This document shows, one piece after another, positions 3,594 through 36,187 of a stretch of DNA of 36,187 nt (position 1 is the first letter of the stretch; each line of letters begins with the position of its first letter). The position numbers and the translations under genes were made by a program. Origin of the DNA: a virus (lineage: Duplodnaviria; Heunggongvirae; Uroviricota; Caudoviricetes). Where the stretch lies: positions 1 through 36,187 of the IMG/VR virus record IMGVR_UViG_2778261630_000008; one strand, given 5' to 3'. Under the pieces are notes generated by a model. That model was not told where the DNA came from. It searched no databases and saw nothing but the letters and a program-made list of their open reading frames with translations.

Positions 3594-4040
3594 TCACCCC
3601 GCCAGCCATTGCAGAATCATGTCGCGGGTCATTGCCTCAACATCATCATTTACACCCAGAAGGCGACGCTCTGCGTAACGCACCTCCGGTCCCTTACGAC
3701 TGACGCGATCTCGCAGGCCGTAATGGTGAACGCGGGCAATGCGCTGCACCTTGCCTTCAAACTGCACGCTGGCAGAGTCGGTGCTGGCGGCAGTTTTCAG
3801 GTATTTTGTGGTGCGCAGCTTTGCAAACATCTGACGTTTGATGCGCCCCTTCTTGCTGCGTGCTGTTACCCTGCGCGGTTCATAACTGCTGCCATCTGGA
3901 TTGCGCTGCATCCTGATATTCTGCTGCTGTGTCCGGCGCAGTTCCTGCGCCAGCTGGCGCATCATGCGGCTTCTCGTGGCTGGTTCCAGATTCGCCAGCA
4001 AGGCACTCAGCCAGTCGTCCACCTTCTGCAGTTCAGCCAC
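3594..4040 (-). CDS. S: tail completion protein S
   Basis: 148-aa ORF with GTG start overlapping the end of R; size and position as P2 gpS. Confidence 0.8.
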   Translation of the reverse strand: MAELQKVDDWLSALLANLEPATRSRMMRQLAQELRRTQQQNIRMQRNPDGSSYEPRRVTARSKKGRIKRQMFAKLRTTKYLKTAASTDSASVQFEGKVQRIARVHHYGLRDRVSRKGPEVRYAERRLLGVNDDVEAMTRDMILQWLAG

Positions 4041-12352: not shown

Positions 12353-13051
12353 TTATTTGTTTCTTCTTTGTTCACGCCTTGTCTTGGCTTCGATAAGGCG
12401 TTGAGGTTCAGTGTAAAGCCGTTCTAAAAAAAGATAGGTAAAATCTTCAAGATCCTCAGCAGCAGCTTTATCCAAAATACCTTCATGCGCTCCATCATTT
12501 CCGTCATCTTTAACGCATTCAGCTAGTTCCCTTAAAGCTTCAGGCAGTAGATGATTATCAAATAACCACTCCATTCTTAACCCTAGGCTTCTCCTTATTT
12601 TTTGCGCAGGCCCTTGCTCCCCATCAGGAAGAAGTCCTTTTGTGGCATAATCAAGGCAAAGCCTAAACATGGTTGCTGCTGCATTATAACAACCTATAGC
12701 CAAACATTTCGCCCCTTCCTCATATGCACTATTGATATGCTCAGGTAAGAACTCTGGTGGCTCCTCTACTGCTAAGTCTGCCGGTGATATAGGCCTAACA
12801 ACCTCTGCAACTTCCTTTAAGCCGAATATTCCACTTTCCCAATTATAGCCATCTAAAGTTTTATTTTTCGTTAAAGGTCTGCAAAGAAACATTGTCGTTT
12901 TATGACACTCTCGGCAAACACAATAGACCTCGTACTCGTATGTTTTACCCCCGCCCAATGCATTGTAAACCCTAGTGCAATTCAGCCCATTAACATCAAA
13001 CGCTATTTTTTGTGATCCACATCGTGGACAGTCATCTACTAACATAACCAT
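12353..13051 (-). CDS. cargo protein, 232 aa: N-terminal 4-Cys zinc ribbon plus helical C-terminal domain (possibly DUF4145-like); function unknown
   Basis: ATG 13051 with GGGAGGAG RBS; CPRC...CVCRECH cysteine pairs; more AT-rich than the phage backbone; inserted between the portal stop and cos. Confidence 0.6.
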   Translation of the reverse strand: MVMLVDDCPRCGSQKIAFDVNGLNCTRVYNALGGGKTYEYEVYCVCRECHKTTMFLCRPLTKNKTLDGYNWESGIFGLKEVAEVVRPISPADLAVEEPPEFLPEHINSAYEEGAKCLAIGCYNAAATMFRLCLDYATKGLLPDGEQGPAQKIRRSLGLRMEWLFDNHLLPEALRELAECVKDDGNDGAHEGILDKAAAEDLEDFTYLFLERLYTEPQRLIEAKTRREQRRNK

Positions 13052-13160
13052 GTCAATTACTCCTCCCTATGAAAAAAATGAGTTGAAAAATTGAATATTC
13101 ACGACTTAAAAAGCTAGCCTATTTAACACCATAATTTCATTAATTCAACCATGAGCGCGC

Positions 13161-13180
13161 GCTCGTATCCCCGCCACGCC
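13161..13180. other. cos site of the prophage (186-type variant)
   Basis: Minus-strand GGCGTGGCGGGGATACGAGC shares the first 13 nt with the 186 cohesive end as I recall it; the flanks align base-for-base with the satellite cos region at 27011..27060. Confidence 0.55.
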
Positions 13181-13225
13181 TGCCCGCTTTATGTAGTGGT
13201 TTTCATGCACCTGCATGATCTACGC

Positions 13226-13250
13226 AAAAGCCCGCCAGAACTGGGCGGGC
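13226..13250 (-). terminator. rho-independent terminator downstream of the 433-aa cargo gene
   Basis: GCCCGCC / GGCGGGC stem (13230..13236 with 13244..13250) followed on the minus strand by TTTT. Confidence 0.5.
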
Positions 13251-13475
13251 CTTAGCAAAAACGATCCTCAAACGATCATGCAATATCATGCACTAAAGAC
13301 ATGCACTAACAAGTGAAACTCCGTATCCAAATGACCACTTGCGAAACATTCGAATTAATAAAGCTAAAGATCTGCAGCGCTCGAGATGCGGTCGTTAGTT
13401 TAAGAAGCTTATTAGTGCATTAGAGTTATGAGATCGTTTGACATAGGGGCTCATAAGTGTTGCTACTTCTTATAT

Positions 13476-14777
13476 TTATTCGGTTAAATTTTTCAATGGC
13501 GCACCTGGAAGATGATGATGAACAAACTTACCTTTATATTCAATATGATAGCAAAGTAACATATAGAACAATGTTAGGCATGAGTTATAATTTTTAACAT
13601 TTTCTTGCCAAGAATGTTCTTTAAAATGTTTTGCGTGCGCAGATCTATTTCTTGCTTTATACCAAGTTGTAGCTAACTCTTCTGGAAAAAATCCTTTTTT
13701 TGCCATATTAAAAAGAGTTCCTTTGACCGAGGATCTTCCACCTTTTTCTAGCAATTGAATAATCGAAGATTTAACTCTCTCGTTTATTTCAAGGTTTTCT
13801 ATCACAGGCTTAGACTCACAACATAAACTGGAAAACTCAACATCTTCTATTTTAAAAGTAGAGTAAAATTTATTTATTACACCTTCAATTGAAACAGTTA
13901 GACTGAGAGTTTCATTTTCTAAATCAGATTGATGAGCATTAAATATCTTTCTCCAATAATAGTAAAAGGTTTTATCAGTCTCGAATTTTTTAATGTATGC
14001 TTGCGAAAATTGCACCCATTCATTTAGATAATATGGAGCTCTTTGAGGAATAAAAGTCATCAGCCTCTGTTTTTCTTTATTATCAATATGCTTAAATATC
14101 AATAACCTACTGTCATTCCCTTGCCACAACACTAAAGCAGGATTGAGTAGAACCCCAGATGCAACGGACAATGAATCTAGAATACTTTTAGCATATAAAT
14201 AAGAAAAATCATCATCAGAATCAAGACAAATCCTAGTGTATTTATCCTCTAAAAGAATGCTAACATTTATATTATTCAACGAAAATACGGATCTCGTCCT
14301 ACGCTTCCCTTCCTCACCTAAGTCTTGAAATTCATTACAAGGGATATTAATTTTTTGCGGGATGAAAAATATTACTTTATGTTTTTTAAAATCCCCATCT
14401 ATTTTTCTTTTTATTTCATAAAGCTCACAATCAATGCTTACCCCTTGTTGTGAAGCATTGATATTTACATATGGGTCAACATCTTTTGCTTGCCATAAAT
14501 ACCCATTCAAATCAATCGCATTCATAGAAAAAAGATATTCACTACCGATGATTTCTCCATAATCAAGATGATTATATGTTGGGCATGTGCTAAATTGAGC
14601 ATCAGTTTCTTTATGTAAGAACTTTAGATGAATTTTATTATTTTTATAATAAAAAAATCCAGAACCTGTAAACATTTTTGGATTTTCATTAGTTTGTTGT
14701 GTGAGAGTCACCTCAATTAATTCATGAGTAAATGAACCAGCCAATAGTTCTTCAATTTTTTCTTTAACAATGTTCAC
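13476..14777 (-). CDS. cargo protein, 433 aa, strongly AT-rich; C-terminal HEPN-like R-N-x3-H motif; candidate anti-phage / abortive-infection effector
   Basis: GTG 14777 with AAGGAAGGA RBS; motif WYKARNRSAHAKHF near the C-terminus; sits at the cos-to-gene-A accessory locus (old/tin position of P2); composition contrasts with the backbone. Confidence 0.7.
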   Translation of the reverse strand: MNIVKEKIEELLAGSFTHELIEVTLTQQTNENPKMFTGSGFFYYKNNKIHLKFLHKETDAQFSTCPTYNHLDYGEIIGSEYLFSMNAIDLNGYLWQAKDVDPYVNINASQQGVSIDCELYEIKRKIDGDFKKHKVIFFIPQKINIPCNEFQDLGEEGKRRTRSVFSLNNINVSILLEDKYTRICLDSDDDFSYLYAKSILDSLSVASGVLLNPALVLWQGNDSRLLIFKHIDNKEKQRLMTFIPQRAPYYLNEWVQFSQAYIKKFETDKTFYYYWRKIFNAHQSDLENETLSLTVSIEGVINKFYSTFKIEDVEFSSLCCESKPVIENLEINERVKSSIIQLLEKGGRSSVKGTLFNMAKKGFFPEELATTWYKARNRSAHAKHFKEHSWQENVKNYNSCLTLFYMLLCYHIEYKGKFVHHHLPGAPLKNLTE

Positions 14778-15034
14778 TAACTATCCTTCCTTCATATATA
14801 ATATCAACAATCATCACCACATCTTATATCCACTTTTCCTAAGTTTCAAACTAATCATGTTATAAGGCTCAGTTTGATTTATACATTTTTATTCTCAATT
14901 GAGTTTTAGCAATGCCCGCTTCTAATACACTGCTGATGATCACTTATCAAAGCGATCACGACATCTAACACCTCATTTCACTCGTTGTTCTATTTTATCC
15001 CCATCAGAATGAATCTTCTGGGGAGCAACGTTTC

Positions 15035-15268
15035 TTAATGCAGCCAGCTGTCGTCTTCCCACACCTTCTGCATAATTTTCATCACTTGTTTTCTTTCTTC
15101 ATCCAGTTGCAGTCCGGTTAGTTCCACACCGTTAGAGCTACCTTTGCGAATGCGAATTACCGTTTTGGGATACAGGGGGCGCAGATTGCGGTAAAGCTCG
15201 GATTCAAGGGCGTTCAGGGTAGACTGGCTAATCTTCTGCTCTTTATCGATCATTATTTCAATGCGCAT
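15035..15268 (-). CDS. DinI-family protein
   Basis: ATG 15268 with GAGGTGA RBS; 77 aa (MRIEIMIDK...VWEDDSWLH) resembling DinI as recalled; second gene of a LexA-box operon. Confidence 0.8.
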   Translation of the reverse strand: MRIEIMIDKEQKISQSTLNALESELYRNLRPLYPKTVIRIRKGSSNGVELTGLQLDEERKQVMKIMQKVWEDDSWLH

Positions 15269-15278
15269 AAAAGTCACC

Positions 15279-15467
15279 TCAGCTGATGACATCCATTGAG
15301 CGGTTGTATTCGTGGCTTCTGATTTTTGCCATGAGTTCATCAGTCAATTCAGAAACCCACTGCAGAGCCAGCCCCTTCTCTTCATCACTACACTCACTAG
15401 CCGCTACAAGCTTAAGAAAAAAATCAATGCGCTGGAGCTTCAAAGACTCCAAAAAATAGTCCTGCAT
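15279..15467 (-). CDS. small SOS-operon protein at the Tum (antirepressor) position of 186
   Basis: 62-aa ORF, ATG 15467 with AGGAGGAA RBS, ~40 bp downstream of a LexA box; function inferred from position only. Confidence 0.5.
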   Translation of the reverse strand: MQDYFLESLKLQRIDFFLKLVAASECSDEEKGLALQWVSELTDELMAKIRSHEYNRSMDVIS

Positions 15468-21076: not shown

Positions 21077-21709
21077 ATGAGTTTAATCAAGGCAGGGAAT
21101 GATAGTGGTGGGCGCGATGCGATTAATAGGCTTATTAAGGCTTACAACTTCAGCTCACGACAGCAGCTCTGCGAACATCTGGAAGTATCAAAAAGCACTA
21201 TGGCTAACAGATACTTAAGGGATAGCTTTCCTGCCGAATGGGTAATCCAATGTGCCCTTGAAACAGGAGCTTCCCTTCTTTGGCTGGCTACTGGTCAAGG
21301 AGATATGTATGCGTGTGAGAACGAAGAAACAAATCTCAAAAATGAACCTCCCGTCACTGTAAGACCACTTTCTAAGATCGTTGCTCCTAGCATCAAACGT
21401 GTTGAACTGAAGAACGGCGAACTGCAGCCAAGTGATGAAATTCTTCTTGATAGCAGCCTGCTCGATGGTGACTCATCCAACGCTTTATTTGTTAAAACAG
21501 CTAATGATAGCTTTGTAGTGGATACGTCTGTTAAACAAGTCAGTAATGGCTTCTGGTTAGTCGATATGGACGGAGTTAAAAGCATCGTCAAAATTGCGCG
21601 CATACCCGGAAACAAAATAGTAGTTAACCAAGATGACACTTCATTTGAATGTTCTGTAGATGATGTGGAAGTCGTAGGACGTGCAGTCAAAGTAATCAAG
21701 AACCTCTAA
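21077..21709 (+). CDS. cI: CI immunity repressor
   Basis: ORF-track start 21071 is TTG; ATG 21077 has AGAGG RBS; N-terminal HTH and C-terminal oligomerisation-like domain; followed by int as in 186. Confidence 0.8.
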   Translation: MSLIKAGNDSGGRDAINRLIKAYNFSSRQQLCEHLEVSKSTMANRYLRDSFPAEWVIQCALETGASLLWLATGQGDMYACENEETNLKNEPPVTVRPLSKIVAPSIKRVELKNGELQPSDEILLDSSLLDGDSSNALFVKTANDSFVVDTSVKQVSNGFWLVDMDGVKSIVKIARIPGNKIVVNQDDTSFECSVDDVEVVGRAVKVIKNL

Positions 21710-21712
21710 CTT

Positions 21713-22753
21713 ATGACCATCAGAAAACAGCCGAACGGAAAATGGTTGTGTGAGTGCTATCCCAATGGACGCAATGGTAAGCGCGTGCGTAAGCAATTTG
21801 CTACCAAAGGCGAAGCCATTGCGTTTGAAAGCTTCACAATGGAAGAAGTGAACAAAAAACCATGGCTAGGGGAAAAGGAAGATCGGCGACATCTATCAGA
21901 ATTAATTGAGCTGTGGTATTCCCTGTATGGTCAAACACTCGCAGACCCCAAGCGCCTCATGGCGAAACTTAGAATTATCTGTAATGGTCTAGGCGATCCC
22001 ATCGCCTCAGAACTGACAGCTGGTGAGTTTACGAAATACCGCGAAGCACGGTTAAAAGGTGAAGTACGAAATGAAGATGGCACGCTTATGTCGCCAGTTA
22101 AGCCCCGCACGGTAAATCTTGAACAGCGCAACCTATCATCTGTTTTTGGTACACTGAAAAAGCTGGGCCACTGGTCAGCCCCCAACCCGCTTGCTGGGCT
22201 GCCAACATTTAAAATTGCTGAGGGTGAATTGGCGTTCCTGACCCCGGAAGAAATTAAACGTCTGCTGGATGCCTGTGCTGATTCTCAAAGCCCCAGTCTG
22301 CTGATGATTGCAAAAATATGCTTGGCCACCGGCGCACGCTGGAGCGAAGCCGAAAACCTACAGAGTCATCAGGTATCAAAATACCGTATCACTTATACCA
22401 AGACTAAAGGAAAGAAAAACCGAACAGTGCCTATTTCAAAGGATTTATATGAAGAACTGCCTAAGAATAGGGGAAAATTATTTACACCTTGTAGGAAAGC
22501 TTTTGAACGTGCGGTAAAACGAGCTGGTATCGAGCTACCAGAAGGGCAATGCACACACGTATTACGACATACATTTGCAAGTCACTTTATGATGAATGGC
22601 GGAAACATACTGGTGCTGCGCGATATTCTGGGCCATGTCGATATAAAAATGACAATGATTTACGCCCACTTCGCTCCCGACCATCTGGAAGATGCTGTAA
22701 CCAAAAATCCTCTTGCTAACCTTGGATGGAGAAAATTAGAAAGTGCTTGTTAA
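21713..22753 (+). CDS. int: tyrosine integrase
   Basis: 346 aa with C-terminal R...H.LRHT...Y catalytic region; 4 bp after cI stop. Confidence 0.9.
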   Translation: MTIRKQPNGKWLCECYPNGRNGKRVRKQFATKGEAIAFESFTMEEVNKKPWLGEKEDRRHLSELIELWYSLYGQTLADPKRLMAKLRIICNGLGDPIASELTAGEFTKYREARLKGEVRNEDGTLMSPVKPRTVNLEQRNLSSVFGTLKKLGHWSAPNPLAGLPTFKIAEGELAFLTPEEIKRLLDACADSQSPSLLMIAKICLATGARWSEAENLQSHQVSKYRITYTKTKGKKNRTVPISKDLYEELPKNRGKLFTPCRKAFERAVKRAGIELPEGQCTHVLRHTFASHFMMNGGNILVLRDILGHVDIKMTMIYAHFAPDHLEDAVTKNPLANLGWRKLESAC

Positions 22754-22859
22754 TAACTATATCCAACAATACCCATGGATATCGTACTTACTTATCATAA
22801 TATATTTTATATATATATGCCTTGAATTATATCTATGCGTATCAAAAAAAGGCTTTAAC

Positions 22860-23789
22860 ATGGATGAAAGGCCATTAACAAGTCAATACTTATTTAAACA
22901 ATCACTTAGGATTCCTGTATTTTCAGCGATATACTTTGGTATATTTTCCTGGCTTGGACATTCCCCTCAATTTGATAGTGAGGGCTTTAATAATTTCATT
23001 GCAATTAGCAAGCTTCCTATCGCCTTACTTTCTTTGTCCATACCATTTGTTGCTGTCGTAGCAAACATACACCGCACAGTTCAAACAAACCGACAAATTG
23101 AGGAAACCAAGCAAAAGAATCTATCTGATAGCTACTATAGCCATCTAAAGTTCGTTACTGATTATTTCACCAATTTACCTAACAAAACCATTAAACGCGA
23201 ACGTCATTATGGTACTAAAGAGATAAGTTATAAAATTAACTACCCAATACATCTATATAGATATATTTTCATAAATAGCTCACCAGAGAAGGGACGGCCT
23301 AAAAATACAGATAAAGAATACATACGTGAAGTAAATAATCACTGGGTTGATATACTAAAAAACCTAGAGAAGATACTTTCATCTAATCGTGGCTCTCAGT
23401 TTGACGAAGTTTTAATCCGTCAAATGCAATCTCTTCATTCAATAGAAAAACACTTATCCGAACTTAATCGAATGCTTTGCCTAACTCCCATGGAGTTAAA
23501 TGAACATGCAACTTTATACTTTGATGGATATGAAATGATTACTAACTTCATGTCCAGCATTGAACTTGGCGATACAATTGAAACCTACTTCAAATTTACC
23601 ATTGATATTCTTGATATTACCGATAATTTCCTTTCATTCAAGGATGATGGCTCGTCTGGGCAAATCATTATACTAGCAAGATTACTGAAAGATAATAATC
23701 CAGCTATCTTTGATGAAATTGTAACAAACAAAGGGAAGGCTCAACCTTCGTTGACCTACAATGGCGACAGATTGGCGACAGAACATTAA
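22860..23789 (+). CDS. cargo protein, 309 aa, AT-rich, two N-terminal TM helices; function unknown
   Basis: ATG 22860 after an AT-rich promoter-like stretch (TATATATATA); hydrophobic segments IPVFSAIYFGIFSWLG and IAISKLPIALLSLSIPFVAVVANI; lies between int and the att core. Confidence 0.6.
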   Translation: MDERPLTSQYLFKQSLRIPVFSAIYFGIFSWLGHSPQFDSEGFNNFIAISKLPIALLSLSIPFVAVVANIHRTVQTNRQIEETKQKNLSDSYYSHLKFVTDYFTNLPNKTIKRERHYGTKEISYKINYPIHLYRYIFINSSPEKGRPKNTDKEYIREVNNHWVDILKNLEKILSSNRGSQFDEVLIRQMQSLHSIEKHLSELNRMLCLTPMELNEHATLYFDGYEMITNFMSSIELGDTIETYFKFTIDILDITDNFLSFKDDGSSGQIIILARLLKDNNPAIFDEIVTNKGKAQPSLTYNGDRLATEH

Positions 23790-23874
23790 AAATGAGTAAA
23801 ACGGACAAACACAAGATAATACTAACTTGATGATTTTAAACGCAAGTTAATGTTTTTGCTATAGTGAAAATGGT

Positions 23875-23919
23875 ATGTAGGAATTTCGGACGCGGGTTCA
23901 ACTCCCGCCAGCTCCACCA
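23875..23919 (+). other. ssrA: tmRNA (ssrA) 3'-terminal 45-nt segment = attachment-site core shared by the prophage and the satellite
   Basis: ATGTAGGAATTTCGGACGCGGGTTCAACTCCCGCCAGCTCCACCA matches the E. coli tmRNA 3' end as I recall it; sequence upstream diverges, so this is not a full tmRNA gene. Confidence 0.8.
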
Positions 23920-23952: not shown

Positions 23953-23988
23953 AAAGCCCACATGGAACAAGCCTTGTGGGCTTTTTTG
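23953..23988 (+). terminator. rho-independent terminator (ssrA-type)
   Basis: GCCCACA / TGTGGGC stem followed by TTTTTT (23982..23987). Confidence 0.65.
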
Positions 23989-24030
23989 TGTCCTCAGTTG
24001 TCCGAGAATATCCCGCTAAATCCAGTGATT

Positions 24031-24103: not shown

Positions 24104-25297
24104 GTGGCAAGAACGACACGCCCCCTGACCAACACAGAAGTGCTGCGCGCAAAAGCGTTAGAAAAGGATCTTACATTGCATGATGGCGATGGTCTTTTTC
24201 TTCTCGTTAAAACGAACGGTAAGAAGTTATGGCGTTTCCGTTATCAACGTCCGACAACAAAGCAGCGGACAATGATGGGGCTAGGTGCCTTCCCAGCCAT
24301 ATCGCTTGCAGATGCCAGGAGATTAAAAGCTGATTATCTTTCATTATTAGCCAATGGAATTGATCCGCAAATTCAAGCGAAAGTGGCAGAGGAACAGCAA
24401 CAAATCGCGCTTGACAGTATTTTTTCAACAGTCGCCGCTAACTGGTTTCTGCTCAAAAGCAAAAGCGTTACCCCTGATTACGCAAAAGACATTTGGCGTT
24501 CACTTGAGAAAGACGTATTCCCCACTATCGGTGAGATCCCCGTTCAGAAGATCAAAGCCCGAACATTAATTGAAGCTCTTGAGTCCGTCAAAGCTCGAGG
24601 GGCGCTAGAGACCGTTCGTCGACTGGTGCAACGCATTAACGAGATAATGATTTATGCGGTTAACACCGGTTTGATTGATGCAAATCCAGCATCAGGTGTT
24701 GGTATGGCATTTGAGAAACCTAAAAAGAAAAATATGCCAACACTACGCCCAGAGGAATTGCCTAATCTGATGCATTCATTAACAATGTCAAATCTATCTG
24801 TCTCTACTCGATGTCTCATTGAATGGCAACTCCTAACTCTTGTCCGCCCTTCTGAAGCTTCAGGCACTCAATGGGCTGAGATCGATTTAGATGCGAAACT
24901 CTGGATAATTCCAGCTGAAAGAATGAAAGCAAAACGAGAACACATTGTTCCTTTGTCCCCCCAAGCTTTAGACATTTTGAATATAATGAAACCCATCAGT
25001 GCTCATCGTACACATGTTTTTCCTAGCAGGAGTGACCCCTTAAAACCAATGAATAGCCAAACGGCAAATGCCGCATTAAAGCGAATTGGCTTCGCTGGCA
25101 AACTAGTAGCCCATGGTCTACGTTCTATTGCAAGCACCGCCTTAAACGAACGTGGTTACAATCCTGATGTTATAGAAGCAGCTCTTGCTCATAGCGATAA
25201 AAACGAAGTACGTCGCGCTTATAATCGCTCGGTTTATTTAGAAAAACGTAAGCAACTAATGAATGATTGGGGGCAAATTGTGCACCCCCAATCATAA
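24104..25297 (+). CDS. int: P4-family tyrosine integrase (IntA-like)
   Basis: 397 aa, GTG start with AAGGAG RBS; strong resemblance to CP4-57 IntA / P4 Int as recalled; ~185 bp downstream of the ssrA core. Confidence 0.9.
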   Translation: MARTTRPLTNTEVLRAKALEKDLTLHDGDGLFLLVKTNGKKLWRFRYQRPTTKQRTMMGLGAFPAISLADARRLKADYLSLLANGIDPQIQAKVAEEQQQIALDSIFSTVAANWFLLKSKSVTPDYAKDIWRSLEKDVFPTIGEIPVQKIKARTLIEALESVKARGALETVRRLVQRINEIMIYAVNTGLIDANPASGVGMAFEKPKKKNMPTLRPEELPNLMHSLTMSNLSVSTRCLIEWQLLTLVRPSEASGTQWAEIDLDAKLWIIPAERMKAKREHIVPLSPQALDILNIMKPISAHRTHVFPSRSDPLKPMNSQTANAALKRIGFAGKLVAHGLRSIASTALNERGYNPDVIEAALAHSDKNEVRRAYNRSVYLEKRKQLMNDWGQIVHPQS

Positions 25298-25346
25298 AAA
25301 ACGATTTCAGTCCAAGCAACTATTAAAATTCAATAGATTGGGGACT

Positions 25347-26931
25347 TTATGTAGATTTAACATCAAGATGTTCTCCACAGTATCCGATAATTATTTTACG
25401 TTTACTTCTATCAACCCAAAAGTGGATTCTTATAGTTTCAGACTTGGAGCGGGCTGTTCCTATACCAACGTGTTGGAACATCTTTATTTTTTGACCATTA
25501 TAGTCAAACTCTCTCATTTTAGATAATGTAGCAGATCGCTCTACCGTCTCTGATTCATTTGCTGAATAAGCATCACCAAGAATATCTTTGGCCTTATTAT
25601 CTCCATTTTCAAGATACTCAAGAAGATATTCTGTACAAAGTTTATATAATAAATAAATCAATCTATGATTGTGTTTGAATTTCGATGAGTTCCTCGCTGA
25701 AGAAAATGCTGATTTAAGAATCTCAACATTATTAGGGATTAGGATTTCTAATAAACTCAAAACGGACTCAGGGTTTAACCTATTGCTAATTAAAGATATT
25801 ATCTTTTCAACATCAACATCACCATCAGTAGCTTTTCCATGGTATTTCCTAATATCGTATTTTAACCTTTCTAAGTCTACTTCTATTTTATTTTTTTCAA
25901 AGACAACTGCATCATGCTTTGCATCCAATTCCTCAATCCTTTTTAAATAATCAAGCTCTAATTCTTCACTAGCAGCCTTAAACTCCTCAAACTCTAAGAG
26001 GACTTCATCGAGCAAAGCTTCATACTGAGCACCATCTTTTAACTCATTTAATCTCTGCCTAAAAGAAATATTATCATCACGCTGTCTTTTGGCACGAACA
26101 TTAGCTGGTGATAAATGCAACTTTTTATTATAGCCATTAAAAGCATGCGTTATTACTGATAATATATAATTATTAATAGGAACATTACCCGCTTTAATTT
26201 CATCAACTTGCTTCGGGAGAAAAAGTTTTGTTCCTATATACCCTGACTTATTCATTGGGTAAATAATATTTATTGCCCCCCCCCCAAGATGAATAGTGTC
26301 TTCCAAGTAATCGTTCCATTTCCCAAGAGTCCATTTTACCACTTGTTGCAACAACCTGAGCAAGCCCAATAAGTTGCTCCTGTAGTTTTTCAGGTATAAC
26401 AGGAAATCCATCATTACCTTCACTAATAAAAACTAGCGGGTAGGTCCTGTCATCCCTAGAAATTTCATGCATAAGATACTGAAAGTCGCCATACTGACTT
26501 TTAATATAATCCACTTTCTGGCCGATAACATCCAGATCGAATACACAATTCCGTTTCAAATATGATACCAGAGATGGACGAGTAGCAATTGGTTTTGCAT
26601 CAACCATAGTGCTAACATCACTTATTTCTAACAATATAGATATAAACGTGCTTCCTTTTTCACGTCTAATTCCAATTTCTGTAATCCATTGTCTACCGCT
26701 CACATTCCTATCAGGATGAGTGTACATTATGGAATATATTTTAGGTTCCATTCTATCAGCCGTGTAGGTTCTAACATAGGCTCGCTCTAAATTCCAATCA
26801 CGCCGCGAAAGTAGCTCATCTGTTGATAGGCGAATATTAGCAACCCTATTAAGCCAACCACACACAGAACGCACTACGCTAAAAAAACTATCTTCACCGA
26901 TGCAATTAAACGAATTAACATAAACTAACAC
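25347..26931 (-). CDS. satellite hotspot gene, ~528 aa if read through a G10 tract; as written split into 227-aa and 358-aa overlapping frames; function unknown
   Basis: GTG 26931 with AAAGGAGA RBS; frame A (26931..26248) and frame B (26423..25347) overlap by 176 bp with the homopolymer inside the overlap; loss of one G fuses them; AT-rich; between int and cos. Confidence 0.55.
26276..26285. repeat. homopolymeric tract, C10 on plus strand (G10 on coding strand)
   Basis: Ten consecutive C at 26276..26285, at the junction of the two frames of the hotspot gene. Confidence 0.95.
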
Positions 26932-27019
26932 TACAATCTCCTTTCACTCATTTAAAGGGGAGGCTGAAAAGGAGTTATCTTATATACTTTTTGTAAATTA
27001 TTTCAATCTTTTGCGCGCA

Positions 27020-27038
27020 GTGCTTTCCCCGCCTCGCC
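27020..27038. other. cos site of the satellite (P2/P4 type)
   Basis: GTGCTTTCCCCGCCTCGCC is the reverse complement of GGCGAGGCGGGGAAAGCAC, the 19-nt P2/P4 cohesive end as I recall it. Confidence 0.8.
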
Positions 27039-27140
27039 CGCCCGCTTTGCGGGGCGGTTTTAATGCAGTTTCACTGACACGCTCAGGCCGCGCCGGGAAT
27101 GGCGCGGTCTGCAGAAAATGAGGCAGGAAAACGCATGCAA

Positions 27141-27172
27141 AGCCATGCACCTTATCGATGCATGGCTTTTTT
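27141..27172. terminator. stem-loop terminator between cos and psu
   Basis: AGCCATGCA / TGCATGGCT 9-bp stem with T-run on the plus side and A-run on the other; could terminate the sid-delta-psu transcript. Confidence 0.45.
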
Positions 27173-27202
27173 CAGTAAAAACAGGCGGATTTTCGGGGAA
27201 TT

Positions 27203-27775
27203 TTACACAGACTGACGTGATGCCAGTTGCGCACTTTTACGCGAAAAAATCATGTTCTGCGCAGGGGTGAATTTTTCACGGCTGTCATCCACCGAAGCCG
27301 CGTCAGGCCTGAATCCGATGGCCGTTAAAATGTCGCTATCCTGTGCGGAATAATTAATTTTTTCCCCCTTCGCAAGCCAGGACAGAAGGGCTTCACGCAG
27401 GGCATCTGTGGTACGCTGTATGGCACAGTTTCGGGCAATGGCCGTCAGCTCACTGTAGCCCATCAGCTCCGGTGCCAGTGCCGCCGCCAGTGCTGTACCG
27501 TGCTGCTGCATAAAATCATTCAGCCGGTCGCGGATGCTGATGTGCTGAACGGCTTCATGCGAACGAATATAACGACCGGCGGCCTGATTCACCTGCCATT
27601 TTCTGACTTCGATAATATTGCGTAATTCGTCCAGGCGGCTGACGTTTCTGCCTTCTCCTGACAGAAGCCGCAGATATTCCTGTTCGGCCGCTGCCAGCTC
27701 ATTTTTGCGTTGCAGCCATGCTGCTTTGTTATTCTGACAGGTGTCAAAGGCCTGCTGTAAGGCTGTGCTTTCCAT
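27203..27775 (-). CDS. psu: polarity suppression protein Psu (capsid decoration / Rho antagonist)
   Basis: 190 aa, the P4 Psu length; last gene of the sid-delta-psu operon next to cos. Confidence 0.9.
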   Translation of the reverse strand: MESTALQQAFDTCQNNKAAWLQRKNELAAAEQEYLRLLSGEGRNVSRLDELRNIIEVRKWQVNQAAGRYIRSHEAVQHISIRDRLNDFMQQHGTALAAALAPELMGYSELTAIARNCAIQRTTDALREALLSWLAKGEKINYSAQDSDILTAIGFRPDAASVDDSREKFTPAQNMIFSRKSAQLASRQSV

Positions 27776-27848
27776 CGTTATCTCTTTCTCATCATGCTGA
27801 AGAATAAAAATACGGTGTGCGGCGACGGCCGGGGTTAACCGGCAGCCC

Positions 27849-28349
27849 TCATTCCAGACGCAGCGAATATGATTGTGTTTTTAACCGTACTGGCGGCAGT
27901 TCCTGTTTTTCATGCAGGCGTTCTGCCAGTTCGTCCGGCGTGACCGGGCGGACAATGAAGCGGTTGATGGTCTGAAGCGTTTTAAACACCAGACCACAGC
28001 CCGGATCCGTGCACACATAAAAACGCTCGGTGACTTCCTGAGACAGACGCCGCGATGTTCTTGACAGTGCAAGGCCTTTACATCTCCGACAACAATATCC
28101 GGTAACAAGCATTCTTTTCGGGCGTTTCATACTGCCGGAGGCCGACGTCAGTGAATCGAGGTATCTCTGTTTGCCTGAAATGTATTCCATTCCTGAATCT
28201 TTACAGTCAGAGAAAAAGCTTTCACTCGCTTCAAATGTCGCAGAGCAATAAATATTCCGGCACTGTGCAATCATTATCTTGGTGCCATCGTCCATGAAAT
28301 GTGCGCGACGGGTGTGAGCAACATGTCCACACGACGGGCAGTAAATCAT
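27849..28349 (-). CDS. delta: Delta late-gene transactivator (duplicated Ogr-type zinc finger)
   Basis: 166 aa with two CxxC...CxxC units (CPSCGH... and CCRRCKG...); start overlaps sid stop. Confidence 0.9.
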   Translation of the reverse strand: MIYCPSCGHVAHTRRAHFMDDGTKIMIAQCRNIYCSATFEASESFFSDCKDSGMEYISGKQRYLDSLTSASGSMKRPKRMLVTGYCCRRCKGLALSRTSRRLSQEVTERFYVCTDPGCGLVFKTLQTINRFIVRPVTPDELAERLHEKQELPPVRLKTQSYSLRLE

Positions 28350-29080
28350 GACAGCAGTCCTCTGGCCTTAAGCTCTGCTCCCTGCTGGTCTATTTTGTCC
28401 TGCCACACCTTGCGCTGTGCCGGTGTGCCTGCCACCTCATAATCCATGTGCGGGAGTGTTGCCGCTGACAGTCCGGTCAGCCGGAGAACCGGCTCGCCGG
28501 TGAGGCTGATTTGCATCTGTTTTATTTTCTGTTCCAGCGATGATTTCACCTGCTGCATGACAGCTTTATCGGGTGCGACGTAGCCCTGATGGCCGGTGGT
28601 GTTGGCGAGCGGATTTTCCTGTACCAGGATGCTCAGATGCATTGCCCGGACAAGCGCCTCACAGGTTTCATTCAGGGCGTGTTCCAGCTCATTCTCTGCA
28701 TACAGACTCAGAAGGTGATGATGTGCCTTCCGGTAGGCGGTGGCCGTGCTGTCACACGCCCCTTTCAGGCGTTCACGTTCAAAATTCAGCACCACGGCCA
28801 GATTGTCATATTCCTGTACCAGCTCCCGGCGTGCCACGCGCTCAATGTGGCGCTGTTTCAGCTCGTCGCTCAGGACACCTCCGGCTGCACGAAAGGCCGT
28901 GCGCCAGTCGTCAGCGTCGTTTCCGTCGGCCTGCGCCAGCGCATTTTTTTCCTGCTCTGCCCGTTCAATAGCCGTGACGGTCTCATCCATCAGGCGGGCG
29001 TTCTCAAGATGAGCGACTCTGGCCTTTTCCAGTTGTGCCAGCGCGGGTTGCAGATATTCAGGGATGGTGTTGTCAGACAT
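28346..29080 (-). CDS. sid: Sid external scaffold (capsid size determination)
   Basis: ORF-track start 29098 is GTG; ATG 29080 with GAGGAG RBS gives 244 aa, the P4 Sid length. Confidence 0.85.
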   Translation of the reverse strand: MSDNTIPEYLQPALAQLEKARVAHLENARLMDETVTAIERAEQEKNALAQADGNDADDWRTAFRAAGGVLSDELKQRHIERVARRELVQEYDNLAVVLNFERERLKGACDSTATAYRKAHHHLLSLYAENELEHALNETCEALVRAMHLSILVQENPLANTTGHQGYVAPDKAVMQQVKSSLEQKIKQMQISLTGEPVLRLTGLSAATLPHMDYEVAGTPAQRKVWQDKIDQQGAELKARGLLS

Positions 29081-29114
29081 TTTCCGGCTCCTCGTCACTT
29101 CAGGTTAAGAAAAT

Positions 29115-29132
29115 TGTGACGTACACCGGACA
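29115..29132. promoter_or_regulatory. TGT-N12-ACA activator site upstream of sid (Psid-type late promoter)
   Basis: TGT 29115..29117, 12 nt, ACA 29130..29132, just upstream of the sid start. Confidence 0.5.
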
Positions 29133-29249
29133 ACAACACGACGCATTGCAGATGTGCCAGCCCTGACACAGGAGACTCATCCTCAGACCGGCAAGCCAGG
29201 AAAAGGTCGCAGGAAAAACCGGCTTACTGTTTGTTTTTTTATATTTTAC

Positions 29250-29363
29250 TGTTCACCTCTGTTCACCATAAGAAAAAAGATAAGTAATACAGTAAGTTAA
29301 ATGGTGAACAATCGCAGTAATGACTGTTCACCGTCTGTTCACCACTGTTCACCACTGTTCACC
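29250..29363. repeat. iteron cluster (TGTTCACC octamers), ori-like
   Basis: Six direct TGTTCACC copies (29250, 29260, 29325, 29336, 29346, 29356) plus one inverted GGTGAACA (29303); this octamer is the alpha-protein binding repeat of P4 ori/crr as I recall it. Confidence 0.7.
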
Positions 29364-29521
29364 CGTTGATGGGCTTTTTGTGCTGTTTATTACTTTTTAT
29401 TTTTATTAATTCACTGAAATAAATAAGAAAAAACAATTTGTATTTCACTATAATTTTTTCCAGCCCCTTCCAGAGCGTTTTAAAGCTATCTGGCGCTGAT
29501 GTGCAAAAAATACACAGCCAT

Positions 29522-29539
29522 TGTAAGACAGCCTGAACA
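29522..29539. promoter_or_regulatory. TGT-N12-ACA activator site upstream of vis (PLL-type promoter)
   Basis: TGT 29522..29524, 12 nt, ACA 29537..29539; ~110 bp upstream of the vis start. Confidence 0.45.
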
Positions 29540-29641
29540 AATCCCCCCTGTTGCGTCTGCTGAAAATATTCACAAAATAAAGCGCTACCCGAAGCCGGAC
29601 GGACTTATCCGGTGCTGTATGGACATTAACGAGGTAGCCCG

Positions 29642-29908
29642 ATGCAAGCTGTTTTTTCTTCCCCGTCTCCCGCTCCTGTAACGCCACTGATTCCGCTGCC
29701 GGACATCACGCAGGAGCGTTTTTTACGTCTGCCGGAAGTGATGCACCTGTGCGGCCTGTCACGCTCGACCATCTATGAACTCATCCGTAAGGGGGAATTT
29801 CCGCCGCAGGTGAGTCTTGGCGGTAAAAATGTGGCCTGGCTGCACTCTGAAGTCACTGCATGGATGGCCGGGCGCATTGCCGGACGCAAACGGGGGTACG
29901 ACGCATGA
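29642..29908 (+). CDS. vis: Vis / AlpA-family excisionase-type regulator
   Basis: 88 aa, the P4 Vis (orf88) length; AlpA-like HTH ([29 protein letters not shown]); GAGG RBS. Confidence 0.8.
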
Positions 29909-30036
29909 TGATGCCTGTTCTGCAAAAACTCCCTTTTTCTGGCTTGCCTTTTTCCGGCATTTGCGGATATAGTTTTTCCGCTGCCGCAAAATCGGCAGCC
30001 GGGCGTGAGAACCCGTGTAACTCGAAGGCGACATAT

Positions 30037-30058
30037 GACGCGCCATGCGTCTTTTTTT
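30037..30058 (+). terminator. short hairpin with T7 tract (candidate attenuator/terminator in the vis-to-orf66 gap)
   Basis: GACGC / GCGTC 5-bp stem (30037..30051) followed by TTTTTTT (30052..30058); weak stem. Confidence 0.35.
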
Positions 30059-30297
30059 GTGTCGCAATCAACGCCACAGAGCGCCAGATTATGGTGTGGC
30101 GTGTGGTTTGCCGTGCAGGTATGATCCTGTTCGCAATCACATGTTATGCCACTGAGTCAATGGTAGCTCAGGCGGGGCAGCCTCCGGGCTGGCCGGTATT
30201 CTTCGAGGCCGGTATTCTCACCCCCGTCTGGGCTATCGCCATCGAGCGTGAGAACTCCGGCGATAGCAGTTATTTGCTACTCGAAGGAGGCTGCCTT

Positions 30298-30495
30298 ATG
30301 GCTACAACCCTTACCCCCTCACACCCTGAATTTGTCTTTGTGTTTGCCGCTGTCCGTCGCGCAGACCGTCATCCCCGTATCTGCATGCTTCGCACCGTCG
30401 CCGGTGATGAACGCAGTGCCCGCCGTTCCCTTGTCCGTGACTATGTGCTCTCCCTTGCTGCCCGTCTGCCGGTGATGGGGGTGTCCCGTGCGTAA
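30298..30495 (+). CDS. small left-operon protein, 66 aa (kil position of P4?)
   Basis: ATG 30298 preceded by GAAGGAGG; the longer upstream extension of this frame looks non-coding and low-complexity. Confidence 0.4.
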
Positions 30496-30775
30496 TAAAA
30501 AAGCCCCTCAGACCGTCTCAGCGCGTCATGACGCCCGTGAACACCTCAGCATTGAGGCTTACCATAAGCTCAACCGCGCCAGCGCCGTATCCCAGTTTGT
30601 TGGGGGTGATTTGATTCACCGTGAACTCTCCGGCCTGCATCAGCTCTACATTCCGCATATTTTCAGCTACCTGAATGAGGATATTGATTTTGTGCTGAAT
30701 GAGCTGAAAGCCAAAGGCCTGTGCCGTGATTTTCTCGCCCAGCAGAAAGACCGGGGAGACAGGACGCATGTTTGA
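30488..30775 (+). CDS. small left-operon protein, 95 aa (epsilon position of P4?)
   Basis: GTG start overlapping the previous stop; size and order relative to orf151/cnr/alpha match my recollection of P4 epsilon; no sequence-level confirmation. Confidence 0.4.
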
Positions 30776-31223
30776 TTTTCCCCAGCCCGGTGAGATTTAC
30801 CGTTCTGCCGGTTTTCCCGATGTGGCCGTGGTCGGCATTCTGGAAGACGGTATTCCGTGGGAAATGCCGTACCGCTGCCCGGACATTGTCTGGAACCCGT
30901 ACCGCCGTAAATTCAGTATCCTTGTGCGTATCCTCGCTGACGGACGCACCACAGACATCCCGCTGGGGCGTTTTCTGCGGGAATTTACCTGTGACCGTCC
31001 TGACCTGTTTAAACGCAGCCCCGTAAACCGGCATGCGGTACTGAAAGAAATGGCCGGAGACCCGGAATTACAGAAATGGCGGGAGAAATATCTGGATATT
31101 TACCCGCAGGCCCCTGTTCCGGTCAGCCGGGCGGCACCGGTGGCGCGGGAATGGCGGGAAATTCCCCGCACGGAGTCTGACCCGGAAATCACCCCGGATA
31201 ACAGTTACCGCAATTATCTGTAA
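30768..31223 (+). CDS. left-operon protein, 151 aa (P4 orf151-like)
   Basis: ATG 30768 ([12 protein letters not shown]...) with GGAG upstream; length and position equal P4 orf151 as recalled. Confidence 0.55.
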   Translation: MFDFPQPGEIYRSAGFPDVAVVGILEDGIPWEMPYRCPDIVWNPYRRKFSILVRILADGRTTDIPLGRFLREFTCDRPDLFKRSPVNRHAVLKEMAGDPELQKWREKYLDIYPQAPVPVSRAAPVAREWREIPRTESDPEITPDNSYRNYL

Positions 31224-31358
31224 TTAAAAAACGACACCCGAAAAATTAAATGTGCGTATTCGCGCAGGGATACGCACGTCTTCAGGAGACGCAGATATGC
31301 CTTATCAGTTAATGCAACCGGCACGGAATGCAGTCATCTGTCACAGGGAGGAAAACAA

Positions 31359-31679
31359 ATGAAAACACCCTTACCGCCCGTCTTACGCGCTGCCCTTTAC
31401 CGTCGCGCTGTCGCCTGTGCCTGGCTGACCGTGTGCGAACGTCAGCACCGCTACCCGCATCTCACCCTTGAGTCACTGGAGGCGGCCATCGCCGCTGAGC
31501 TGGAAGGCTTTTATCTGCGCCAGCACGGTGAGGAAAAAGGGCGTCAGATAGCCTGTGCCCTGCTGGAAGATTTAATGGAATCCGGCCCCCTGAAGGCCGC
31601 GCCGTCGCTGTCCTTTCTCGGGCTGGTTGTGATGGATGAACTCTGTGCCCGTCACATAAAAGCGCCGGTACTGCACTGA
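31359..31679 (+). CDS. left-operon protein, 106 aa (P4 Cnr/orf106-like)
   Basis: ATG with GGGAGGAAAA RBS; 106 aa immediately upstream of alpha. Confidence 0.55.
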
Positions 31680-31693
31680 AGGAGAACAACACC

Positions 31694-34027
31694 ATGAAAA
31701 TGAACGTAACCGCCACCGTCAGCCATGCGCTCGGCCACTGGCCGCGTATTCTCCCGGCGCTGGGGATTCAGGTGCTGAAAAACCGTCATCAGCCCTGTCC
31801 GGTCTGTGGCGGGAGTGACCGCTTCCGTTTTGATGACAGGGAGGGGCGCGGCACCTGGTACTGCAATCAGTGTGGTGCCGGTGACGGCCTGAAACTGGTT
31901 GAAAAGGTGTTTGGTGTTTCCCCGTCCGACGCGGCCGCAAAGGTGGCTGCCGTGACCGGCAGCCTGCCCCCGGCTGACCCGGCAGTGACGACCGCCGCCG
32001 GTGCTGAAACAGACGCTGCCCGGAAGAACGCCGCCGCACTGGCACAAACCCTGATGGCGAAAACCCGTCCCGGAACCGGTAACGCCTACCTGACCCGCAA
32101 GGGCTTTCCCGGCCGGGAATGCCGGATGCTGACCGGCACACACAGAGCCGGTGGCGTGAGCTGGCGCGCCGGTGACCTTGTGGTGCCACTGTATGACGAC
32201 AGCGGCGAACTGGTTAACCTTCAGTTAATCAGCGCTAACGGCCGTAAGCGCACCCTGAAAGGCGGACAGGTCAGGGGCACCTGTCACACCCTTGAAGGAC
32301 AGAATCAGGCCGGAAAACGTCTGTGGATAGCGGAGGGATACGCGACCGCACTTACCGTGCATCACCTGACCGGTGAAACGGTGATGGTGGCGCTTTCTTC
32401 CGTGAACCTCCTTTCTCTGGCCAGCCTTGCCCGGCAGAAGCATCCGGCCTGTCATATTGTCCTTGCTGCTGACCGTGACCTCAGCGGTGACGGCCAGACA
32501 AAAGCCGCCGCAGCCGCAGATGCGTGTGAAGGTGTTGTTGCCCTGCCGCCGGTCTTCGGTGACTGGAATGATGCCTTCACGCAGTACGGCGGGGAAGCCA
32601 CCCGTAAGGCCATTTATGATGCCATCCGGCCACCGGCTGAAAGCCCGTTCGACACCATGAGCGAAGCGGAGTTTTCCGCCATGAGTACCAGCGAAAAGGC
32701 CATGCGTATCTATGAGCATTACGGCGAGGCGCTCGCGGTCGATGCCAACGGCCAGCTTCTGTCCCGCTATGAAAATGGTGTCTGGAAGGTGCTGCCGCCA
32801 CAGGACTTTGCCCGGGATGTGGCCGGGCTGTTTCAGCGTCTGCGCGCGCCGTTCTCCTCCGGGAAGGTGGCCTCCGTGGTGGACACCCTGAAGCTGATTA
32901 TTCCGCAGCAGGAAGCCCCCTCCCGCCGCCTGATTGGCTTTCGTAACGGCGTGCTCGACACGCAGAGCGGCACGTTCCACCCGCACAGTCCGTCACACTG
33001 GATGCGCACCCTGTGCGATGTGGATTTCACCCCGCCGGTGGAAGGGGAAACGCTGGAAACCCACGCCCCCGCGTTCTGGCGCTGGCTTGACCGTGCCGCC
33101 GGTGGTCGTGCGGAAAAACGCGACGTGATTCTGGCCGCACTGTTTATGGTGCTGGCAAACCGCTACGACTGGCAGCTCTTTCTGGAGGTGACCGGCCCCG
33201 GCGGCAGCGGCAAAAGTATCATGGCCGAAATAGCCACCCTGCTGGCCGGTGAGGATAACGCCACGTCGGCCACCATCGAGACGCTGGAATCCCCGCGTGA
33301 ACGTGCCGCGTTAACTGGCTTCTCACTGATACGCCTGCCGGACCAGGAAAAATGGAGCGGCGACGGTGCCGGACTCAAGGCCATCACCGGCGGCGATGCG
33401 GTGTCCGTTGACCCGAAATACCGGGATGCATACTCCACGCATATCCCGGCGGTAATTCTGGCCGTGAACAATAACCCGATGCGCTTCACCGACCGCAGCG
33501 GCGGCGTGTCACGCCGGCGGGTGATTATTCACTTCCCGGAACAGATAGCCCCGCAGGAGCGCGACCCGCAGCTTAAGGACAAAATCACCCGCGAGCTGGC
33601 GGTCATCGTGCGTCACCTGATGCAGAAGTTCAGCGACCCGATGCTCGCCCGGTCACTGCTTCAGTCCCAGCAGAACTCAGACGAGGCGCTGAACATCAAA
33701 CGGGATGCCGACCCGACGTTTGATTTTATCGGCTATCTGGAAACCCTGCCGCAGACCAGCGGCATGTATATGGGGAACGCCAGTATCATCCCGCGCAATT
33801 ACCGTAAATACCTCTATCACGCCTATCTGGCCTACATGGAGGCAAACGGCTACCGGAATGTACTCAGTCTGAAAATGTTCGGGCTGGGGCTGCCGGTGAT
33901 GCTGAAGGAATACGGACTGAATTACGAGAAGCGCCATACCAAACAGGGGATACAGACCAACCTGACGCTGAAAGAGGAAAGCTACGGCGACTGGCTGCCA
34001 AAATGTGACGACCCTGCAACAACCTGA
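31694..34027 (+). CDS. alpha: alpha primase-helicase (zinc-binding N-terminus, primase, SF3-type helicase, iteron-binding C-terminus)
   Basis: 777 aa, the P4 alpha length; CPVCGG...CNQCG zinc motif at the N-terminus, Walker A GPGGSGKS mid-protein; GGAGAA RBS. Confidence 0.95.
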   Translation: MKMNVTATVSHALGHWPRILPALGIQVLKNRHQPCPVCGGSDRFRFDDREGRGTWYCNQCGAGDGLKLVEKVFGVSPSDAAAKVAAVTGSLPPADPAVTTAAGAETDAARKNAAALAQTLMAKTRPGTGNAYLTRKGFPGRECRMLTGTHRAGGVSWRAGDLVVPLYDDSGELVNLQLISANGRKRTLKGGQVRGTCHTLEGQNQAGKRLWIAEGYATALTVHHLTGETVMVALSSVNLLSLASLARQKHPACHIVLAADRDLSGDGQTKAAAAADACEGVVALPPVFGDWNDAFTQYGGEATRKAIYDAIRPPAESPFDTMSEAEFSAMSTSEKAMRIYEHYGEALAVDANGQLLSRYENGVWKVLPPQDFARDVAGLFQRLRAPFSSGKVASVVDTLKLIIPQQEAPSRRLIGFRNGVLDTQSGTFHPHSPSHWMRTLCDVDFTPPVEGETLETHAPAFWRWLDRAAGGRAEKRDVILAALFMVLANRYDWQLFLEVTGPGGSGKSIMAEIATLLAGEDNATSATIETLESPRERAALTGFSLIRLPDQEKWSGDGAGLKAITGGDAVSVDPKYRDAYSTHIPAVILAVNNNPMRFTDRSGGVSRRRVIIHFPEQIAPQERDPQLKDKITRELAVIVRHLMQKFSDPMLARSLLQSQQNSDEALNIKRDADPTFDFIGYLETLPQTSGMYMGNASIIPRNYRKYLYHAYLAYMEANGYRNVLSLKMFGLGLPVMLKEYGLNYEKRHTKQGIQTNLTLKEESYGDWLPKCDDPATT

Positions 34028-34034
34028 CCCACCT

Positions 34035-34059
34035 GACCGGCATCTGCCGGTCTTTTTTT
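34035..34059 (+). terminator. rho-independent terminator of the alpha operon
   Basis: GACCGGC / GCCGGTC stem with ATCT loop followed by TTTTTTT (34053..34059), 8 bp after the alpha stop. Confidence 0.7.
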
Positions 34060-34074
34060 ATCCCTGAATTCCCC

Positions 34075-34375
34075 GAAGGTGAACAATCCACTGTTCACCC
34101 TTCACCGTATATTCACCCGTTATCACACTGAAATTAAAAGAGAAAAATGAAAGGTGAACAGTGTGAACAATCAAATCAAAAAAAACTTTTTTCTCCCTGT
34201 GTGATTTCAGTGCGGGGGATTAATCACCGGTATGAGTCACACCGGCAGAATGCCGGAGGTGAAGAATCGAATGTTCACCCTTCACCCATTATTAACCACC
34301 TATCACTCTGAAATAAAAGGAGAAAATCAAAGGGTGAACAGTGTGAACAGTTCTTTCGAAAAAAAATTTTTTTCC
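34075..34375. repeat. crr-like region: two ~120-bp direct repeats, each carrying GGTGAACA/TGTTCACC octamers
   Basis: Unit 1 ~34075..34195 and unit 2 ~34255..34375, period 180 bp, near-identical; about 4.9 kb from the other iteron cluster, matching the P4 ori/crr arrangement as recalled. Confidence 0.75.

Positions 34376-35110: not shown

Positions 35111-36187
<1,077 letters not shown>

Follow-up and report, generated by a model that had tools for sequence, protein, structure and literature searches.

A three-helix membrane protein encoded between int and the att core of a 186/Fels-2-like prophage is a candidate lysogen-expressed anti-phage protein

The window analyzed here is the whole 36,187-nucleotide stretch of the virus record IMGVR_UViG_2778261630_000008. 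It contains the right part of a P2/186-like prophage, in which a 186-type cI repressor gene, a tyrosine integrase gene (int) and a gene denoted X lie in a row on the + strand (Table 1). The same CI repressor gene appears in the PGAP annotation of E. coli 503440. The int reading frame begins 3 nt past the cI stop and ends with a TAA codon at 22751–22753, and the stop codon of X is followed after about 86 nt by the 3′ end of ssrA, which also Fels-2-like phages use as att core. In other E. coli genomes, an annotated ssrA overlaps the core stretch (...GGACGCGGGTTCAACTCCCGCCAGCTCCACCA; hits H66 and H69), and ARAGORN detected no complete tmRNA gene in the window. As the earlier note had observed, X is much more AT-rich than int (34.7% compared with 45.8% GC), and the late region reaches 56% GC. 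Directly past the displaced ssrA 3′ end is a P4-like satellite (24104–34100), and host glaH/csiD begins beyond it at 35210. The ssrA site is thus occupied by two elements in tandem, a P2-like helper prophage and this P4-like satellite.

Table 1. Features in the window, with positions counted from its first nucleotide.
Feature	Position	Strand	Evidence or remark
DUF4145 protein, GpA–portal hotspot	12353–13051	−	Weak PD-T7-4 match
433-aa protein, GpA–portal hotspot	13476–14777	−	Zero matches
DinI-like protein, GpA–portal hotspot	15035–15340	−
186-type CI repressor gene, first cistron of lysogenic operon	21077–21709	+	Pfam Phage_CI_repr and Phage_CI_C, 1e-33 to 1e-40
186/Fels-2-type tyrosine integrase (int)	21713–22753	+	Pfam Int_N and Phage_integrase
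Gene X, full form, 348 aa	22743–23789	+	ORF list; alignment A1; starts in 72 relatives; codon pattern and dN/dS; PHROG 17460
TM1 (residues about 12–34), holds the TATATATATA run	22776–22844	+	Kyte-Doolittle maximum 2.4; AF2 helix 12–34
TM2 (residues about 52–72; conserved P58, G66, W70)	22896–22958	+	Alignments, hydropathy, AF2
TM3 (residues about 88–110; SKLP motif, conserved P92 and P101)	23004–23072	+	Alignments, hydropathy, AF2
Membrane-proximal helix continuing TM3 (residues 110–143)	23070–23171	+	Alignments A1 and A2; AF2; dN/dS
Variable C-terminal domain (residues about 146–340), predicted cytoplasmic	23178–23762	+
Two direct repeats TGGCGACA, Int arm-binding sites	23762–23769 and 23773–23780	+	Align with Fels-2 non-coding DNA after int stop
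att core, displaced ssrA 3′ end	about 23875–23919	+	Sequence read directly; aligns with Fels-2 attP
First terminator-like hairpin with T run after cI-int-X, host ssrA terminator	23969–23991	+	Promoter/terminator scan
P4-type integrase, P4-like satellite	24104–25297
psu, P4-like satellite	27203–27775
Alpha primase, P4-like satellite	31694–34027

The GpA–portal hotspot of the prophage (12353–15340, − strand), a classical site, is also AT-rich, with a GC content down to 30%. In the satellite, the int–psu hotspot (25347–26931, − strand) holds two overlapping ORFs of 32–37% GC, 25347–26423 and 26248–26931, that correspond to the C-terminal and N-terminal halves, respectively, of the PADLOC HEC-07 model. 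The first ORF also matches NsnC, and the pair looks like one candidate defence gene broken by a frameshift. Rfam matches to c4-a1b1, isrK and C4 antisense RNA on the + strand of the satellite (29967–30243) presumably mark its RNA-based immunity region.

The long open reading frame that the earlier note placed between the int stop and the att core is borne out by the ORF list, the sequence and the RefSeq annotation, where 14 of 5426 complete E. coli genomes have the 22860–23789 frame listed as a hypothetical protein. X is carried at 99.4% identity by a Klebsiella phage record, and is also present in phage record OK490418 and in IMG/VR viral contigs. Its boundaries need revision at both ends. 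The coding region stops at 23789 and does not extend to 23870 as proposed, and the length of 309 aa, obtained as in PGAP-style annotation from ATG 22860, gives way to 348 aa because the start positions in relatives favour GTG 22743, which overlaps the last 11 nt of int. The relatives were recovered as 94 viral contigs and 12 genomes encoding them. In about 60 of the 72 distinct relatives that adjoin a 186-type int, the start codon lies at −16 to +11 nt relative to the int stop; the commonest junction is a 4-nt ATGA overlap, and ATG accounts for 51 of the starts. The 39 extra N-terminal residues form a hydrophobic helix ahead of the conserved core in an alignment of 30 homologues (A1), where the same start position is kept even at only 35–47% identity. 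At least 25 residues precede the first conserved loop in 130 of 173 family representatives, and 117 of these 130 have a hydrophobic stretch of transmembrane (TM) strength there. When the 117-nt extension of the window is compared with that of two relatives, 2 of 28 differences fall at second codon positions, as expected where hydrophobic codons are kept. PHROG 17460 (function unassigned) is matched at E = 3e-148, with residues 1–293 of the 309-aa form aligned to positions 29–343 of a profile of 343; the profile runs about 28 positions further N-terminally, which agrees with the 348-aa form.

Judged from these comparisons, GTG 22743 is most likely the start of X. In this lineage, the GTG has a poorly spaced Shine-Dalgarno sequence, and it is possible that a shorter form with two TM helices is made from ATG 22860 as well or instead. 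A holin-like dual start, considered on account of the near-invariant M40 in the close subfamily, was rejected because the wider family has Leu or Ile at this position and no conserved start codon. The corrected gene model restores one TM helix and the coupling to int, both of which are lost when X is started 117 nt late, as in PGAP and the earlier note.

The promoter-like leader that had been assigned to X, the AT-rich run TATATATATA at about 22810–22822, lies inside the coding extension and encodes the I-Y-F-I-Y-I segment of TM1. A promoter scan, which overall gave fewer sites than in shuffled sequence, detected no promoter-like site on the + strand between the int stop and 22860, and the scan revealed neither a + strand promoter-like site nor a terminator between cI, int and X. 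Because of the 3-nt gap between cI and int, the 11-nt overlap between int and X, and the lack of a promoter site between them, X is best read as the third cistron of a cI-int-X operon, and its translation appears to be coupled to that of int. For phage 186, leftward transcription on the cI side is read out with an int-lacZ fusion (PMC7708051). X is almost certainly expressed in the lysogen, where its transcription would proceed from pL.

The position of X relative to the phage attachment site can be defined closely by comparison with Fels-2, where the int stop is followed by 117 bp that contain no gene, and then by the attP core. Collinearity between the window and Fels-2 breaks off at the int stop and resumes at about 23760, and the alignment supports the earlier view of X as an insertion where relatives have int beside att. 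The right boundary of this cargo slot is formed by the two arm repeats TGGCGACA, whose TGGCggca sequence is matched by the reverse complement of the 186-type Int arm consensus tgccGCCActt (PMC3448106). Because the junction falls on these repeats, the last eight codons of X (GDRLATEH, then stop) are encoded by the arm sites. Unrelated cargo proteins of the slot, including those in L100, L103 and L104, share a tail of the form G-(D/G)-x-L-A-A-E-H and the same stop codon, and the tail codons of the cargo are the two arm-binding repeats TGGCGnCA read through. X accordingly lies inside the element, between the int stop at 22753 and the arm sites and core at 23762–23919, at the int–att position that a 2026 survey counts among the minor defence hotspots of P2-like phages (PMC13586616).

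The att arm is present in 217 E. coli genomes, and the occupants of the slot were read from a sampled subset of these. In one prophage the slot is empty, as in Fels-2, and in another it holds a GapS1 family protein. Other prophages carry an anti-phage dCTP deaminase on the strand opposite to int, a different member of the X family, or one of several unrelated hypothetical proteins. The slot GapS1 gene of another strain is not matched by the X family HMM. The int gene of the window is 90–100% identical to those that adjoin X family members in other loci, and X proteins that are only 27–48% identical are found beside int sequences with 90–95% identity. This disparity indicates rapid exchange of the cargo next to a near-constant int, and the empty slot in Fels-2 and other functional relatives indicates that X is dispensable for the phage life cycle. 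From these comparisons, X is accessory, swappable cargo in a slot that it has in common with proven anti-phage genes. The cargo genes GapS1 and dCTP deaminase (PMC13586616) are likewise single, AT-rich and swappable, and occupy the same position in ssrA-integrated prophages, but they have no sequence relationship to X, which is a membrane protein whose gene is oriented like int and coupled to it. Its place in this slot makes X a good candidate for phage defence, although the argument is one by association.

X belongs to a large unnamed family. A profile search against 1.84 billion representatives gave 1061 proteins with E ≤ 1e-3, 506 of them with E ≤ 1e-10; the 1061 members are representatives at 50% identity. 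The earlier statement that the soluble domain has no recognizable motif holds, as Pfam, NCBIfam and PDB sequence searches were all empty. In Pfam, no match was obtained for X at E ≤ 0.1, including SLATT and other membrane-effector domains, and none recurs among 62 family members; in NCBIfam, there is no family at E ≤ 1, the GapS1 model included. A sequence-profile search of the PDB gave no match, and Foldseek with the full X model against the PDB gave nothing at E ≤ 0.001. Searches with the N-terminal module alone for fusions to known domains returned only unannotated fragments, and no mention of the X protein accessions or the PHROG identifier was found in the literature. Nor was significant similarity to validated defence or exclusion proteins detected in comparisons with PADLOC, SieA and RexA/RexB.

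The family extends to elements of very different kinds. A family member lies immediately behind the S24 repressor gene of small Vinavirales-like Vibrio elements, the filamentous Vibrio phage VALG_phi6 (an inovirus) carries a member, and further members are found near lambda-type integrases. The TM and HR-helix module was located at 3842–4918 in L095 (PQ189356) and at 2887–3726 in L096 (MN719123), with HMM E-values of 1.5e-18 and 4e-12, respectively. In contig L076, the family member is placed between cI and int, a position that is a hotspot in K139-like phages according to Rousset et al. (PMC9122126). Several copies look damaged. The match to X in L019 begins at residue 50, about 1.3 kb past int, which suggests interruption by inserted DNA. 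The frames in L033 and L079 open about 120 nt past int and do not encode TM1, and P0011 is a truncated form of 176 aa that stands for 59 sequences. An identical X is found in E. coli 503440 (L001, NZ_CP025881), in a rearranged prophage with a truncated replication gene A beside an IS100 copy; there, the att region is followed by tail genes, and the genome contains the att arm twice.

That X is a spurious or decaying frame in AT-rich filler between int and att would be compatible with its low GC content, with a dN/dS of 0.3–0.67 in the less constrained N-terminal extension, and with the truncated or interrupted relatives (L019, L033, L079 and P0011). It is nevertheless highly improbable that 348 codons in DNA of 35% GC are open for this reason: the family counts 1061 representatives, dN/dS amounts to 0.02 for the core and 0.2 for the C-domain, and the structure models are confident (pLDDT 83–86). 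These conservation and selection data effectively refute the explanation.

Hydropathy and the AlphaFold model (pLDDT 83) agree on three TM helices in X, at residues of about 12–34, 52–72 and 88–110, one more than proposed earlier. A cytoplasmic loop with the conserved motif PLTxQxLF (loop 1) immediately precedes TM2, which itself follows the pattern FG..F.W.G. Residues 90–143 are modelled by AF2 as one unbroken helix, such that TM3 continues into a membrane-proximal segment with the signature H110 R111 T Q114 T Q118 I ... K125 N126 D129 ... H134 K136. The signature columns are invariant or nearly so in the alignments A1 and A2, and the residues H110-R-T-x-Q114-T-x-x-Q118-I ... K125-N-x-x-D129 are located on one face of the helix. 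The C-domain is modelled as a mixed alpha/beta structure that comprises a four-helix bundle and two beta-hairpins, with no known fold relative. Across the family, the combined Lys and Arg counts are 0.7 for the N terminus, 3.3 for loop 1, 1.1 for loop 2 and 2.7 for the part that follows TM3. By the positive-inside rule, these counts place the C-domain in the cytoplasm, and the N terminus is predicted to be periplasmic.

The earlier description of the membrane part as an anchor for a soluble domain has to be reversed in emphasis, since the membrane part is the most conserved region of X and the soluble domain is the variable one. The dN/dS ratio is 0.02 for the membrane core (residues 40–145) and about 0.2 for the C-domain, and among pairs of 162 representatives, BLAST mutually detects the N-terminal module in 100% and the C-domain in 14%. 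The membrane core is therefore a constrained functional module joined to a fast-diverging domain; at an average dN/dS of about 0.2, the C-domain gives no direct sign of positive selection. The invariant polar face formed by H110, Q114, Q118, K125 and D129 suggests a specific conserved partner. Conservation of this degree in a membrane core would be unusual for simple pore formers, and binding of a conserved host or phage partner fits equally well.

A specific partner can also be accommodated if X has no role in defence and instead acts as a membrane-tethered modulator of the lysis–lysogeny switch or Int, as an addiction or toxin-like stabilizer, or in lysogenic conversion that alters envelope physiology. 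Besides the invariant polar face, the tight coupling of X to cI and int in many different elements and the lack of a known defence domain are in line with such roles. They are difficult to reconcile with the empty slot in Fels-2 and other functional relatives, where X is dispensable, and with the anti-phage genes found as alternative occupants. The rapid turnover of X beside a nearly identical int fits conflict and not housekeeping, and X contains no enzyme-like motif or fold. We regard a non-defence function as improbable, somewhat more so than the exclusion of superinfecting phages that is considered below.

Several characterized membrane proteins share features of architecture with X. SieA of phage P22 is, like X, expressed from a prophage and located in the inner membrane; both have three predicted TM helices, and their sequence types have diverged strongly (PMC10883804). 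It differs in being only 162–164 aa long, lacks a large cytoplasmic domain, and is expressed from its own promoter in the P22 immI region. An hhalign comparison of alignment A2 with P22 SieA gave a probability of 0.3%. As the main alternative to abortive infection, X might nevertheless work in the manner of SieA and block genome injection at the inner membrane without killing the cell. The three-TM inner-membrane layout and the expression together with the repressor would agree with this, as in classical sie and rex genes, and the strong conservation of the membrane core and the periplasmic loop would be compatible with contacts to a conserved membrane component of host or phage. Apart from the missing homology to SieA, however, the periplasm-exposed parts of X are tiny and conserved, and the large variable domain would, by the predicted topology, lie in the cytoplasm and thus remote from the incoming ejection apparatus. 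Moreover, myoviruses, Vinavirales-like elements and an inovirus all have family members, and the competitors of such different elements do not share one route of cell entry. Superinfection exclusion is for these reasons an unlikely function of X.

The lambda RexA and RexB proteins provide exclusion functions that are co-transcribed with the repressor in the lysogen, as proposed here for X. The membrane component RexB is thought to depolarize the cell once the cytoplasmic sensor RexA has been triggered, and X would join the two roles in one polypeptide. Whereas Rex consists of two genes and RexB has four TM helices, X is a single gene with three. The hhalign probabilities are 1.2% for RexB and 0.06% for RexA, and on these negative profile comparisons X was rejected as a homologue of either SieA or RexA/RexB.

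The 2TM effectors of CBASS and Pycsar systems (PADLOC PDLC00691, PDLC00682, PDLC00695 and 2TM_IV) resemble X in that N-terminal TM helices precede a cytoplasmic domain. The known effectors of this type kill by membrane disruption. A faint match of X to PDLC00691 (CBASS 2TM) was obtained at E = 8e-5 for the 309-aa form and 2e-4 for the 348-aa form, and the weak 2TM profile matches extend from TM2 through TM3 to the helix behind it. CBASS 2TM models are matched by only 5 of 62 family members, X included; these sporadic matches may reflect the composition of the TM segments and are too faint to assign X to this class. No CD-NTase, cyclase or other signal-generating partner is present near X, where the neighbours are cI, int and att, and the same is true in about 70 related loci; X has no SAVED, beta-barrel or other nucleotide-binding fold. 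The KwaA profile does not match X and reaches only 2 of the 62 members (E of about 0.005–0.009), and because the slot lacks a second gene (a kwaB partner), X does not classify as Kiwa. Finally, PdpSau/AbiP resembles X in that one accessory gene of a prophage encodes a protein whose N-terminal segment lies in the membrane and whose C-domain is cytoplasmic. PdpSau, for which loss of membrane potential upon infection is described (PMC10127798), has one TM helix and a positively charged OB-fold-like domain, resides in a staphylococcal phage lysis module, and is set apart from X by the described folds.

Based on the locus and on the architecture of the protein, the following role can be proposed. 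X is carried as cargo by a 186/Fels-2-like prophage, at a site bounded precisely by the int stop on one side and the Int arm sites of attP on the other, and in the lysogen it would be made from the leftward cI-int transcript as a third, translationally coupled cistron. The product is predicted to reside in the inner membrane with three TM helices, the N terminus in the periplasm and the C-domain in the cytoplasm. The fast-evolving cytoplasmic domain may recognize a component of an infecting phage, upon which the conserved three-TM bundle and the HRTxQTxxQI helix would act on the membrane and cause ion leakage or depolarization. Such membrane damage would abort the infection and thereby protect the lysogen against other phages. 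The mechanism would be functionally similar to those of RexAB or PdpSau/AbiP, without homology to RexAB. We consider this reading, in which X is a lysogen-expressed anti-phage protein that combines sensor and membrane effector in a single chain and acts by abortive infection, to have not quite an even chance of being correct. A lysogen-expressed exclusion or abortive-infection gene had been proposed in the earlier note, and this part of the proposal gains contextual support from the cargo slot shared with anti-phage genes, the tight packing of cI, int and X, and the turnover of the sequence; the separate promoter, the two TM helices and the role of the membrane part as an anchor find no support.

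A more far-reaching version of the proposal is that X is the founding example of an unnamed immunity family coupled to the lysogeny operon, with the three-TM/HRTxQTxxQI unit as a new phage-triggered channel that opens under the control of a hypervariable cytoplasmic sensor of novel fold. The family would in this case comprise at least 1000 clusters at 50% identity, in P2/186-like prophages, elements with lambda-type integrases, Vinavirales-like Vibrio elements and an inovirus. This version appears doubtful to us; if true, it would amount to a new single-protein mechanism of abortive infection.

What is new here is the uncharacterized family, and what is already known is the kind of system, i.e., prophage accessory genes at an integrase-proximal defence hotspot. 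X therefore merits experimental testing as a candidate and is not in itself surprising. For such work, the invariant membrane module set against the diverging cytoplasmic domain offers a handle on the coupling between sensing and effector action. If X is protective, it would represent a widespread family of single-gene membrane defence proteins that is missed by current defence-finding tools (Pfam, NCBIfam and PADLOC), and the int–att slot of ssrA-integrated P2-like prophages would be a productive source of new systems.
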